Of a stretch of 64,000 nucleotides of DNA, positions 27,640-64,000 are shown in pieces. Below the pieces are notes generated by a model that searched no databases, was not told the DNA's origin, and was given only the letters and a program-made list of their open reading frames with translations. This stretch comes from Octopus vulgaris. Lineage: Eukaryota. The DNA is taken from assembly GCA_951406725.2 (NCBI GenBank), contig OX597840.1, positions 19,096,001 through 19,160,000 on the forward strand, given 5' to 3'. Position numbers and translations under genes: made by a program. How positions within the stretch are numbered: position 1 is the first letter of the stretch; each line of letters starts with the position of its first letter.

Positions 27640-29036
27640 TAAATGAAAGAATGGAGTCGAACGAAGATGTTAACAAAATTCCTTTACTCTCGACACATGT
27701 TTCGAAGACAGCATGTTCTCATTCCAACCCATCATACAATTATAATAATAGGAATAGTATTAATAGTAGCAGCATTAGTAGCAGCGAAGGTGTTAACAAT
27801 GATAATATTAATGATAGTATTAGTCGTGATAATAACAATGGTAGTGTTGATGGTAACAACAATAACGGTATTATTGTCGGTGGTATTACTGGTTGTAATA
27901 CCATTAATAATACTAATAATAATAGAAATAGTGTAGTTGTTAGCGCTAATAATAATAGTAACAACAGTAATAACAATAAAAACTTCGTCTCGATCTCGGA
28001 GGACAACCCCAACAGAATTAAATTTTTGTCTAGTAATTCTAAGATTAAGAATGCTATTTACCAGTGTAGAATTTCTTCCGGTACCGATGTCTTCTTCTAT
28101 ATAGAAGCTTCCACTTCCCAGTTATCCAAGAGAATTTCATACCACTACTCAACATTCAGAGATAGTAAAAAACGTCATAGCACAGGGCTAAGTAAATTAG
28201 TTTGGCGTCTTAAAGACAACAATATAATTTTCAAGTTAGATTGGCTCATACTGTCTGTATCCTTTCCTTTTGATAAGGGCAGGAGATTCTGTAACTCTGT
28301 AACATTTGTAACTCTGAACTCTTCCATATTCTTTTCGCTAAGGTTCCCCTAGTAAACACACTCATAGAAAAATCGTACAAATGTAAACACTGGCAGAAAC
28401 ACACTTTCTACTCATATAAATGATAACGATAGTCACTGTGGTTTGAACAATTAGCTTTACGCCCACCACACTGCTATAGAGAAATTCTTTCCTAAGCCTT
28501 CGAACATTCTTTCAATCAACGTACCCTTCCCTCTTCACTTGTTCCCTAACTATTATTCCTTTATACCTTCCCTTCCTACTATCTATCTTTGACATCTGTC
28601 TCTCTCTCTCTCTCACACACACAATCACACACACAGACACAAATGCAGTTATACACACACACATACACACACACAAACGCACGCACTCATTAACACAAGC
28701 ACACACTCACACATTTCCATACATACAGCAAACATACTATTCCCTACCTCTTATTACTTTATCCCTTCTCTTCCTACTATCTATTTTTAACATCAATTCT
28801 TCTAACGGTTTTTTTAAAGAAACACTCATTATCGCTTTGTTTACCATGTAGGCAATCATCGAAATTTTTGCTTGTCTTGTTGCCGAGAGAGGCTCCCTTT
28901 CTTTCCTGATGAGAAGATTGCATAATGCACCCTTTATTCCTTTGGAATGAGAACATGCTGTCTTCGAAACATGTGTCGAGAGTAAAGGAATTTTGTTGAC
29001 ACCTTCGTTCGACTCCATTCTTTCATTTATTCATAT
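27633..29036 (+). mobile_element. 5'-truncated Neptune-type PLE with inverted terminal segment
   Basis: GIY-YIG remnant NAIYQC...FFYIEAST...KRISYHYSTF...STGLSKLVWRLK...LDWLIL...FCN and KCKH; 27633-27727 is an inverted copy of 28942-29036. Confidence 0.85.
28895..28989 (+). ncRNA. Type I hammerhead ribozyme
   Basis: CTTTC-CTGATGA(28906)-GAAGA...TCTTC-GAAA(28966)-CATGTG-TC-GAGAG; extended stem I, long stem II, GUC site. Confidence 0.85.
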
Positions 29037-31382: not shown

Positions 31383-31873
31383 GTATATATAAATGATAGA
31401 CAATATCAAAACAATGCATAAAACATACACAAAAATAAATGAACGCAAAGAATATAAATTTTTTCAAGAATGAAAAGCAATTCATTTAATATTGATCTTT
31501 TGGTGATCAGAAAATTTTATTTAAGTTTAAAATAATTCTTAAGTTTGGAACCAGAAGAAAACAAAAAAAAATGAATAAATGAAAATAACATAAAAATAGA
31601 ACATTTTAAGTAAATACACAGATTTTAAGTAATTACATAAACAATCAAACAGACAAATAAATAAATAAATAAATAGATACTGAAGAAGGAATGAAAAAAA
31701 AATGAAAGAGTTGAATAAGGTGAAAAAAATAGGATTGAAAAAATATATCGGAGATACTGAAAATTGCATCGCGATATATAGTAAATAAAAGGGAAATTTA
31801 GAAAATACACACACACACACACACACGCACACACGCACGCACACAAACACACACGCACGCACACACACACACA

Positions 31874-32220
31874 CACACACACTCACACACATATATAAGG
31901 ATATACACACATATATACAATCATACATATATACAGATATACGTATATGCAAACAATTAAAAATATATAGTTATATATAGTTATACATACAAACGTACAT
32001 ACGTATCTTCGTATTTACACATACATATAAATATATACTCATACGTACACACACACTCACACACATATATAAGGATATACACACATATATACAATCATAC
32101 ATATATACAGATATACGTATATGCAAACAATTAAAAATATATAGTTATATATAGTTATACATACAAACGTACATACGTATCTTCGTATTTACACATACAT
32201 ATAAATATATACTCATACGT

Positions 32221-32221
<1 letters not shown>
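31874..32221. repeat. Tandem duplication of a 174-bp low-complexity unit
   Basis: 31874-32047 repeated at 32048-32221. Confidence 0.85.
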
Positions 32222-32251
<30 letters not shown>

Positions 32252-32446: not shown

Positions 32447-32798
32447 AACGTACACATGTATATTTATGTATATAGATAGAGTCACATAATCGTATTACAT
32501 ACATTCATACATTTCCATACGCACATACTTTCATGTGTAGTTAGAAAGTATGATTCGTAATCATGAGATTTCGGGTTCGATCCCCAAGAGAATGAGCGCC
32601 TTTAACGGCGGTGCCCCAGCATGGTCGCAATTCTCGAGCTTGAACTAGTAAAAGTAAAAGTACACACACACATTCATATATATATATATATATATATATA
32701 TACTTAAAAGAGAGATCTCAGTAAAACCACAGCACTTAAACGGCAAACAACACAGGCAAAAGAGAAAGAAGTGACGACAATCATTCTATATTAAGTCA

Positions 32799-32889
32799 CC
32801 TACGGACGTACGCTTCGAAATTAAGTCATAGGAAAGCATAAAAATTAAATAATTATGTCTTACCCGACTACTTTTCTCCTCAGCGTAGG
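32799..32889 (-). ncRNA. Inverted copy of the same hammerhead with GAAA changed to GAAG
   Basis: Minus strand reads TTTC-GAAG-CGTACGTC-CGTAGG. Confidence 0.8.
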
Positions 32890-33380
32890 ACTCTACAATT
32901 ATGAATAATTGTGTATTAAATTTGGAGTCACTAGAAGACATCACCTCAACTCATGGTATCAGAGTGAGCGTAAGCCGTGACCTTTTAAGTAGAAAAATAG
33001 CCATAACTATTTGACTGCTATTTCTAAATTCGGTGTGTGGTGAGGCAAATCGTTGCTAAACCCTTAATTACGTAGTATTACTTAAACTTTCCTCGAATGG
33101 GGCTTTTAAATGCCGAAATCTACTTGGTGAAATTAATGATTACTCCAAATTAATTGATTTCACCCTATATTATTATTGATAACCATATTTCATCCCAGCA
33201 AATGACCGCAACATCTTATTCTGGCAGCACGCTGGTGGGAGGAGGATGGTGACATACTTTCATTCACCCTTTGAATTTGGTGGTACTGGTAATGGCTTTA
33301 GCTCGCTCTGATACCATGAGTTGAGGTGATGTCTTCTAGTGACTCCAAATTTAATACACAATTATTCATAATTGTAGAGT

Positions 33381-33471
33381 CCTACGCTGAGGAGAAAAGT
33401 AGTCGGGTAAGACATAATTATTTAATGTTTATGCTTTCCTATGACTTAATTTCGAAACGTACGTCCGTAGG
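33381..33471 (+). ncRNA. Canonical type I hammerhead ribozyme
   Basis: CCTACG-CTGAGGA-GAAA...(long stem II)...TTTC-GAAA-CGTACG-TC-CGTAGG; perfect 6-bp stem I, palindromic ACGTACGT, GUC site. Confidence 0.9.
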
Positions 33472-33652
33472 TGACTTAATATAGAATGATTGTCGTCACT
33501 TCTTTCTCTTTTGCCTGCGTTGTTTGCCGTTTAAGTGCTGTGATTTTACTGAGATCTCTCTTTTAAGTAGAAAAATAGCCATAACTATTTGACTGCTATT
33601 TCTAAATTCGGTGTGTGGTGAGGCAAATCGTTGCTAAACCCTTAATTACTTA

Positions 33653-33724
<72 letters not shown>

Positions 33725-33790
33725 ACACGTTGTAATGTAAGGAGAAATTAAGAAGTAAAATAAGTTAAAATGCACATTGGAAATTTAAAG

Positions 33791-33982
33791 ACGCCATGAT
33801 AGATCGTTAGCCACTACACACATTTTTTCTCTCGTTGTTTTTTTCTGTGTCCCTTTCTGTAGAAGAGCGTAGACTCGAAATGTAAAATACTTTTTCTATT
33901 CCTGAGCGTTATACTAATACATCTGTTTGTTTTGTACACCACCTGTGTTCGTCTTTTTTTTTTCGTTTTTTTCGTAAACTCT

Positions 33983-33987
<5 letters not shown>
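33791..33987 (+). mobile_element. Family HB copy 2
   Basis: CTTT-CTGTAGA-A-GAGCGTAGACTC-GAAA-TGT-A-AAAT at 33853-33888; 3' end runs into (TA)n. Confidence 0.78.
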
Positions 33988-62442: not shown

Positions 62443-62600
62443 GGAGAGAGAGGGAAAGAGAAAGAAGGAAGATCCCCCTTCCTATTAACCATTTATTTAT
62501 TTATTTAGTCATTTACCATTGTATTGGAATGGATTTAAGGATGGTGACCTTTTAAAAAAAGATTTCATCCAACAAATACCTCCCGCTGTCACAGGAGGTA

Positions 62601-64000
62601 CTATACTTATATAACCCATACTTTAGGCCTAGAAGCAATCATACACTGGGTAGAGAAACATAGAAGACGGATAAATGAACGCTTCAAGGCTGACTTCATC
62701 ACCAAGGCCACACTCCTAGCACTAGAAGAAAATAACTTTAGTTTCGACAATAAGACATATCGACAGATAAAAAGGCACGGCTACGGGGATGCGGTTTGCG
62801 CTCCCTCATACGCAAAGTTAGTTGTGGGATACTTGGAAGAAACACTTTATGAGGAAGTAGAAAAACTTTTGATCAGGAGCACAAAAAATACATCATTAGA
62901 AAATGGAAACACTTCCTTGATGATTGTCTCATGTTCTGGGACAGATCGCATGAAGATCTAACTATATTTAACAATATGCTGAACACATTTCACCCATCCA
63001 TCAAATTCACGACAGAATCCAGTTGCAATGAATTACCATTCCTGGAGATCCACTTAAAAATACAGAACTCCACAGTCACAACAGACATATTTTACAAAAC
63101 AACTGACACACACCGATATTTAAATTTCTATTCTTGCCTTCCATCATACATCAAAAGAAACACCCCATATAGCATGGTAAAACGCATCTGTGCTATAGCG
63201 ACTGACCTCAAAATACGTGAAATCCAACTCAACGAACTCAAAAGCTTCCTCACCATTCAGAAATACCCCTTAGGATTAATTAATGAGGGAATTAAAAAGA
63301 CGATGAAACTGACCATCACCCAACTACGGACACTTAAGGAAAAAGTTAATGAAAACACGATTCCGTTCGTTAACACACACAGTCCTGGAATAACCAACAT
63401 CTTTCACACCATAAAATCGAACCAGTCTATACCCCTACAAAGCCCCAAAATGAAAAATCTGATTGAAAAAATACCTTACGGAATAGTAGATACCAACCAA
63501 AAAAATCTTAAAATACACCTCACAAGGGCAGAATTCAAATCAGAGAACGAATCGGAATTCTTAGTAAAAGAATGAAGAAATAGGAGACTTGGAACATGCG
63601 ACAACAACATCTTTAAATACTTAGAAAGTGGTTCCCACATAAAATTCAAGAGCGGACCCCTTTTCAAAATAAATGCAGATATCAACTGCAAAAACGCAAA
63701 ACCTCATATACTGCATTAACTGCCTAAACTGCAAAGAAAATTACATTGGTGAAACAAATAATTTCCTCTGCCAACGTGCAAGAATCCACAGGCAACATAT
63801 CCGACAAGAGGAATTACGCAAGATTCCATTAAGTAAGCACCTGGAGATATTCAGCAATGGAAGATTCAAAAATTTTCCTTTTACAAGTGTGTTCGGGACT
63901 ATCCGCAAAACCGAAAAGCAATGGAACTACATTTCATCAAAAAATTCTCTCCAGAACTGAATGTTTGAAAGAAAAGGGAGGTGAAAAAAGGAAGAAAAGG
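62601..64000 (+). mobile_element. Second decayed Penelope-like element (RT C-terminal half + GIY-YIG), running off the window
   Basis: LGLEAI, NNFSFDNKTYRQ, APSYA, WKHFLDDC, HPSIKFT, LPFLEI, TDIFYKTTDTHRYL, NLIYCINCLNCKENYIGET. Confidence 0.93.

Follow-up and report, generated by a model that had tools for sequence, protein, structure and literature searches.

The question raised by this locus is whether the short repeated element with a hammerhead ribozyme at 32701-33656 of the analyzed 64,000-nt stretch of octopus DNA (the window; G000:C27:19096001-19160000 in a microsatellite-rich assembly of 2.8 Gb) is a mobile unit in its own right, or merely the pseudo-LTR (pLTR) of a full-length Penelope-like element (PLE). 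The results speak with good confidence for a copy of a protein-less hammerhead tandem repeat family, i.e. a non-LTR retrozyme, which was likely put into a (TA)n tract by a PLE endonuclease and reverse transcriptase (RT). Elements of this kind have already been described, and the octopus family is a further member of the metazoan non-LTR retrozymes.

An inverted arm of 282 nt and, behind it, 1.17 head-to-tail units of a repeat of 578 nt make up the element, which lies inside a (TA)n tract of which remnants are found at 32676-32702 on the left and 33654-33722 on the right. Positions in the unit are numbered U1-U578, with U1 at window position 33079. One full unit (33079-33656, plus strand) is preceded by a partial upstream unit (32982-33078, plus strand, U482-U578), which is the 97-nt redundancy: 32982-33078 and 33560-33656 form a direct repeat of 97 nt with a spacing of 578 and one difference, as the first-pass annotation had stated for period and overlap. 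The unit was rightly described as ORF-less, since its longest open frame is 54 codons even when it is read as a circle. It codes for no protein, has no LTR, PBS or PPT, and its GC content is below 50 %. In silico, the fold of the unit is more stable than those of 100 of 100 shuffled sequences (z -4.85), which corresponds to a highly self-paired monomer. The inverted arm (32701-32982, minus strand), previously estimated at about 270 nt, is the reverse complement of 33288-33569 and thus a 5'-truncated copy of U210-U491, positioned head-to-head with the direct copy. The earlier statement that the arms differ at only a few positions understates the divergence a little, as 9 of the 282 nt differ, and 5 of these changes are clustered within 15 nt at the inner end. 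The subfamily variants of the arm are not those of the direct copy, which indicates that the insertion drew on two templates or on a hetero-multimer. Twin priming on one RNA is possible, though the layout lends it no support: the end of the arm lies 10 nt past where the direct copy starts, and an equally close contact was seen in 7 of 86 tests (43 pairs), which is about chance level. Further upstream, at 31863-32245, the window contains a 174-nt tandem duplication of microsatellite-rich DNA with 98 % identity.

The hammerhead motif (33381-33471, plus strand; predicted cut 33465/33466) was read directly from the sequence. Stem I (33381-33386/33466-33471) has 6 bp and a bulged extension, the core comprises CUGAGGA (33387-33393), GAAA (33454-33457) and GUC (33463-33465), stem II spans 60 nt (33394-33453), and stem III has 2 bp with a palindromic GUAC loop. 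By its sequence, it is a canonical type I hammerhead, in agreement with the initial description of a single such ribozyme with an unusually long stem II and a palindromic stem III. A search with Rfam returned no hammerhead match in the window or the element; a descriptor scan does detect the missed hammerhead. The motif is present per unit throughout the family, including 9 of 9 full units of a long array described below. Its core is conserved across the family as far as the aligned copies tell: in the core and stems I and III, 90 of 7,141 bases (1.3 %) deviate from the majority, compared to 7,500 of 126,126 (5.9 %) elsewhere, and a stricter test, which considered shared variants of the ribozyme position by position, yielded p = 0.063 for 87 loci. 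The free N7 position varies between subfamilies (T148/G42/A33). In the predicted structures, the active fold is less stable than the local minimum by 2.6 kcal/mol, stem III has a pair probability of 0.01 in the monomer circle, and the fold of the ribozyme region taken by itself is no better than those of shuffled sequences (z -0.53). A stem III that is barely populated in the monomer is likewise reported for metazoan hammerheads working as dimers (PMC4209133). For comparison, the text of a recent preprint gives one of nine predicted Xenopus dimers as self-cleaving in vitro (Li et al. 2026, bioRxiv 10.64898/2026.07.22.740005). Another type I hammerhead motif, at 28900-28985 of the window, is unrelated; it also occurs at a further locus (L078) and likely belongs to another retrozyme or PLE family.

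To describe the dispersed copies, seven DNA queries were used, which yielded 1,501-2,535 first-look candidates each, and the best 40 were scored per query. For the element itself, 40 of 40 scored places match at 88-100 % over most of 675 nt, so the repeat family is no chance finding. Once duplicates had been dropped, along with eight loci that overlap within one array, the sample comprised 168 loci with 271 same-strand runs; as top-scoring matches, these are biased towards long young copies. They are scattered over many chromosomes. The 3' ends, taken as BLAST ends, fall into two clusters holding 241 of the 271 runs: 151 end at U555-U578, where U578 is also the end of the reference and a few copies extend 3-6 nt further, 90 end at U88-U112, and 30 elsewhere. 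In the window copy, these clusters correspond to 33633-33656 and 33166-33190 (both plus strand), which are putative internal priming sites of the RT; the first of them is the one that this copy would have used. (TA)4 was found within 30 nt of 241 of the 271 ends, and a head-to-head arm in 80 of the 168 loci. More than one unit is covered by 105 of the 271 runs, more than two by four and more than three by one; the cut site is spanned by 193 of 271 runs, and at least two full ribozymes are present in 33. The 5' ends are scattered along the unit. With 6 of 271 at U383-U393 against 5.2 expected, there is no spike at the ribozyme cut site, which argues that reverse transcription did not commonly halt there. 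The search for tandem copies proposed in the first-pass annotation thus met with success, with up to 9.8 units in one array.

Taken together, the end clusters, their abutment on (TA)n and the head-to-head arms are a signature of PLE integration, comprising fixed internal 3' ends, 5' truncation, partial tandems, an inverted 5' arm and a microsatellite target; the attribution of the arm to this process is supported. Mobilization by a LINE of the RTE, CR1 or R4 type, or spreading as satellite DNA, is highly improbable. LINE fragments do occur in some flanks, and the long array has a local higher-order structure, but the family copies have neither a poly(A) nor a shared LINE tail, they are dispersed over many chromosomes, and the two internal 3' end clusters, the tandems of more than one unit and the head-to-head arms are PLE features. 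The features of plant LTR retrozymes, namely a type III hammerhead in LTRs and a 4-bp TSD, are absent as well, as the unit has type I topology and no LTRs. A TSD could not be discerned within (TA)n.

The opposing case named at the outset, in which an autonomous PLE outside the sample has the unit as its pseudo-LTR and the copies are 5'-truncated insertions of this PLE, did not hold up and is quite improbable. None of the 168 loci has a PLE ORF 5' of the unit, nor the RT and GIY-YIG ORF between pLTRs that characterizes autonomous EN+ PLEs, so the unit is not just a pseudo-LTR, and 105 of the 271 runs cross the unit boundary into the unit itself. What keeps this explanation in play is that the PLE families were sampled from the best-scored candidates only (150 of 13,619, 150 of 6,136 and 88 of 26,936), and that published retrozymes resemble pLTRs: homology to the pLTR of a co-resident PLE was found for part of the Xenopus retrozyme families, according to the preprint (bioRxiv 10.64898/2026.07.22.740005). 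An ancestral pLTR origin of the unit is possible.

The family has relatives in the same genome. A sister family (L069:435-1140, L195-L224) with a unit of about 544-564 nt gave 1,791 candidates, of which 30 loci were examined. It aligns along the whole unit, its ribozyme occupies the corresponding position although stem I is entirely different and yet complementary, and its 3' ends are located at the two homologous sites. The sister family and a further relative with 80 % identity (L313) are part of a larger superfamily with a common conserved segment of about 165 nt; the more distant relatives have the segment U510-U96 in common.

The nature of the RNA template is less settled than the assignment to the family. 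Neighboring units of one insertion differ at 309 of 21,696 nt (1.4 %, 108 pairs) compared to 5.7 % between insertions. At one locus (L176), neighboring units show 0 differences in 561 nt, and the nearest relative among 87 loci is 2.9 % away. This similarity within insertions indicates that tandems are regenerated from one sequence per lineage, as a circle would do. A competing explanation shares the same family assignment, a non-autonomous PLE parasite, and differs only in the intermediate: the template would be an uncleaved linear multimer from source arrays, the ribozyme would only release or regulate the RNA, and no circle would be involved. It is tenable and deserves attention, but we give it less than even credence. 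In its favor, an array of 9.8 units with alternating variants and a 2- and 4-unit higher-order repeat exists (L191, G000:C8:3133797-3139511), which is bounded by TA tracts and ends at the usual 3' site. The lack of run-off at the cut site fits uncleaved RNA equally well, the arm and direct copy in the window differ at subfamily sites, and uncleaved RNA is the main in vitro substrate reported for an Anolis PLE (PMC11167929). However, there are many subfamilies 4-9 % apart, each with near-identical tandem units, and a multimer template would need many homogeneous source arrays, of which one long array was found among the best 40 places scored. The unit is also predicted to fold like a retrozyme circle. 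The array itself was considered as a rolling copy of one monomer circle, which is ruled out by its 2- and 4-unit periodicity.

For the circular intermediate, towards which we lean modestly, the following sequence of steps can be proposed. Copies with at least two ribozymes would be transcribed and cut to 578-nt monomers, probably via a dimeric hammerhead fold permitted by the palindromic stem III, and the monomers would then be ligated into predicted circles. A PLE protein may nick (TA)n and prime at either of the two internal sites of the RNA, and the RT may read through the unit junction, giving copies of more than one unit. A second priming at the other nick would produce the inverted arm. 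Such an internal initiation at two sites offers a way for an RNA without a 3' end to serve as template.

The window copy cannot release a monomer by itself. It has one sense hammerhead only and thus fewer than two complete ribozymes, and the hammerhead copy in the arm (32799-32889, minus strand) is likely impaired, as the conserved A15.1 is changed to G. Together with the 280-bp self-complementary arm, this makes the copy a likely dead end, and a circle would need to come from other copies. The proposal of a candidate for a PLE-mobilized circular RNA therefore stands with respect to the PLE-type integration and falls with respect to this locus as the source of the circle. In a comparison with other individuals that skipped repeats, no joint across the insertion was found that would mark an empty target site. 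Of the public sequences that carry the element, none is recorded as RNA; the carriers are contigs of runs guessed to be RNA, and the depth of run X2 over the element and the neighboring repeat is similar to that of runs of unknown kind.

Candidate helpers are available in the same genome, which has several intact or young PLE families with RT and GIY-YIG (A, B, C, D and E), all of which end in (TA)n. Family E has 26,936 candidates and copies that are 99.5-99.9 % alike in the ORF. Identifying the helper by 3' homology failed, as none of the five families tested shares 3' sequence with the unit (best z 2.7 among 15 comparisons), and no homology to a pLTR of these five co-resident families was found either. 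At one locus (L102/L225), a TA tract is followed by an inverted unit and then by a unit copy U552-U89, which passes without a gap into the last 2.6 kb of family E at its 3' side, and a second TA tract closes the locus. This copy of family E is 99.8 % intact, and the unit and E parts are similar in age. The join coincides with the second 3' end cluster, which is where it would be expected if the E enzyme had switched templates. It may also represent two neighboring insertions fused by deletion, since it was found at 1 of 168 loci and other arms adjoin unrelated LINE or mariner-like flanks; enlarging the sample from 87 to 168 loci gave no second junction of this type. At another locus (L289), U87 is joined to an AT-rich, loosely aligned sequence resembling the 3' end of family D. 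As evidence for a helper, the seamless E junction carries little weight. A young EN+ PLE family from the same genome is the likely helper, and family E is the best guess.

Compared to metazoan non-LTR retrozymes, as characterized in the accessible text of Cervera and de la Pena 2020 (PMC7229834) and Li et al. 2026 (bioRxiv 10.64898/2026.07.22.740005), the octopus family shares the ORF-less units with a GC content below 50 %, the tandem arrangement with one canonical type I hammerhead and a short palindromic helix III per unit, the occurrence as monomers, dimers and rare multimers, and the co-occurrence with PLEs. The unit length is within the range of 51-972 bp given in the preprint. Unlike these retrozymes, the octopus unit has a 60-nt stem II, no homology found to a pLTR of the five PLE families compared and no discernible TSD. 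Retrozyme circles have been demonstrated in mussel, coral and axolotl (PMC7229834); the octopus unit, known here from DNA, is longer than the invertebrate circles shown so far (170-400 nt). Priming sites, inverted arms and (TA)n targets are features of the octopus family that are not described for retrozymes in the accessible parts of these two sources. No octopus or cephalopod retrozyme was found in the open literature, and the supplements of both sources may list one; outside subscription journals, nothing was found on retrozyme priming sites. The main text of a recent octopus repeat annotation mentions PLEs and not ribozymes (PMC13282606).

Similarities also exist with PLEs themselves. Non-autonomous Chlamys PLEs such as MRC1 are described as non-coding, multicopy head-to-tail elements with microsatellite targets that are mobilized by PLEs (Craig et al. 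2021, PMC8557442). These share 3' sequence with their helpers and are mostly without hammerheads, whereas the octopus unit has a hammerhead and no 3' end in common with the five families. PLE insertions are reported to be tandem or inverted with a bias towards (TA)n (PMC8557442), and a (TA)n or AT-rich target, 5' truncation, partial tandems and an inverted 5' copy are known from the EN+ PLEs Neptune and Naiad and from Anolis Poseidon PAc (PMC8557442, PMC11167929). For the Anolis PLE, priming at two internal sites downstream of the hammerhead and AT-rich nicking of both strands are described (PMC11167929), which resembles the octopus family. Unlike EN+ PLEs, the octopus unit has no RT-EN ORF, and its end clusters are about 110 nt apart compared to a 30-40 nt tail.

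Mobilization of animal retrozymes by PLEs via circular RNA has been proposed since 2014-2020, based on co-occurrence and pLTR similarity. In the octopus family, the putative priming sites are mapped, the (TA)n target is simple, and young, intact PLEs that may act as helpers reside in the same genome, which makes the model of circle and PLE directly testable in the published in vitro PLE assay. A more speculative and rather doubtful reading is that a superfamily of ribozyme circles of about 580 nt without helper homology is recognized by Neptune-like PLE RTs via two internal priming structures, and that the genome preserves a record of the helper's switch from the helper RNA to the circle. If true, a retrozyme and its helper would be directly identified as a pair for the first time, along with the way in which an RNA without a free end is retrotransposed.

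Several observations on PLEs were made alongside. In families A, B and C, three divergent young families, an upstream ORF of about 450-560 codons overlaps the RT-EN frame of 775-781 codons in the -1 frame (L065:1915-5822, L061:2127-5722, L365:2406-6087, L366:1581-5281). A conserved T-run heptamer is located at the start of the overlap in all three, with a substitution in one copy of family C. Judging from the sequence, this overlap looks like a programmed -1 ribosomal frameshift; no strong hairpin was found 3' of the heptamer in A or B. Athena elements have a similar frameshift. No paper was found on such a frameshift in EN+ PLEs, which are described as single-ORF elements in the text of PMC8557442, and the putative frameshift is possibly more novel than the retrozyme finding. 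Between two ORF2 copies at L061, the pseudo-LTR of family B contains a hammerhead-like motif, identified by eye, with CCGA in place of CUGA. Within the window, 33790-33985 contains a minimal hammerhead-like motif and represents an older 3' end of the family E type (77 % to E); this very high-copy repeat is separate from the element at 32701-33656. Lastly, 62548-63970 contains a decayed, frameshifted fragment of a Neptune-like PLE RT-EN with 63 % identity to family A over the queried part.
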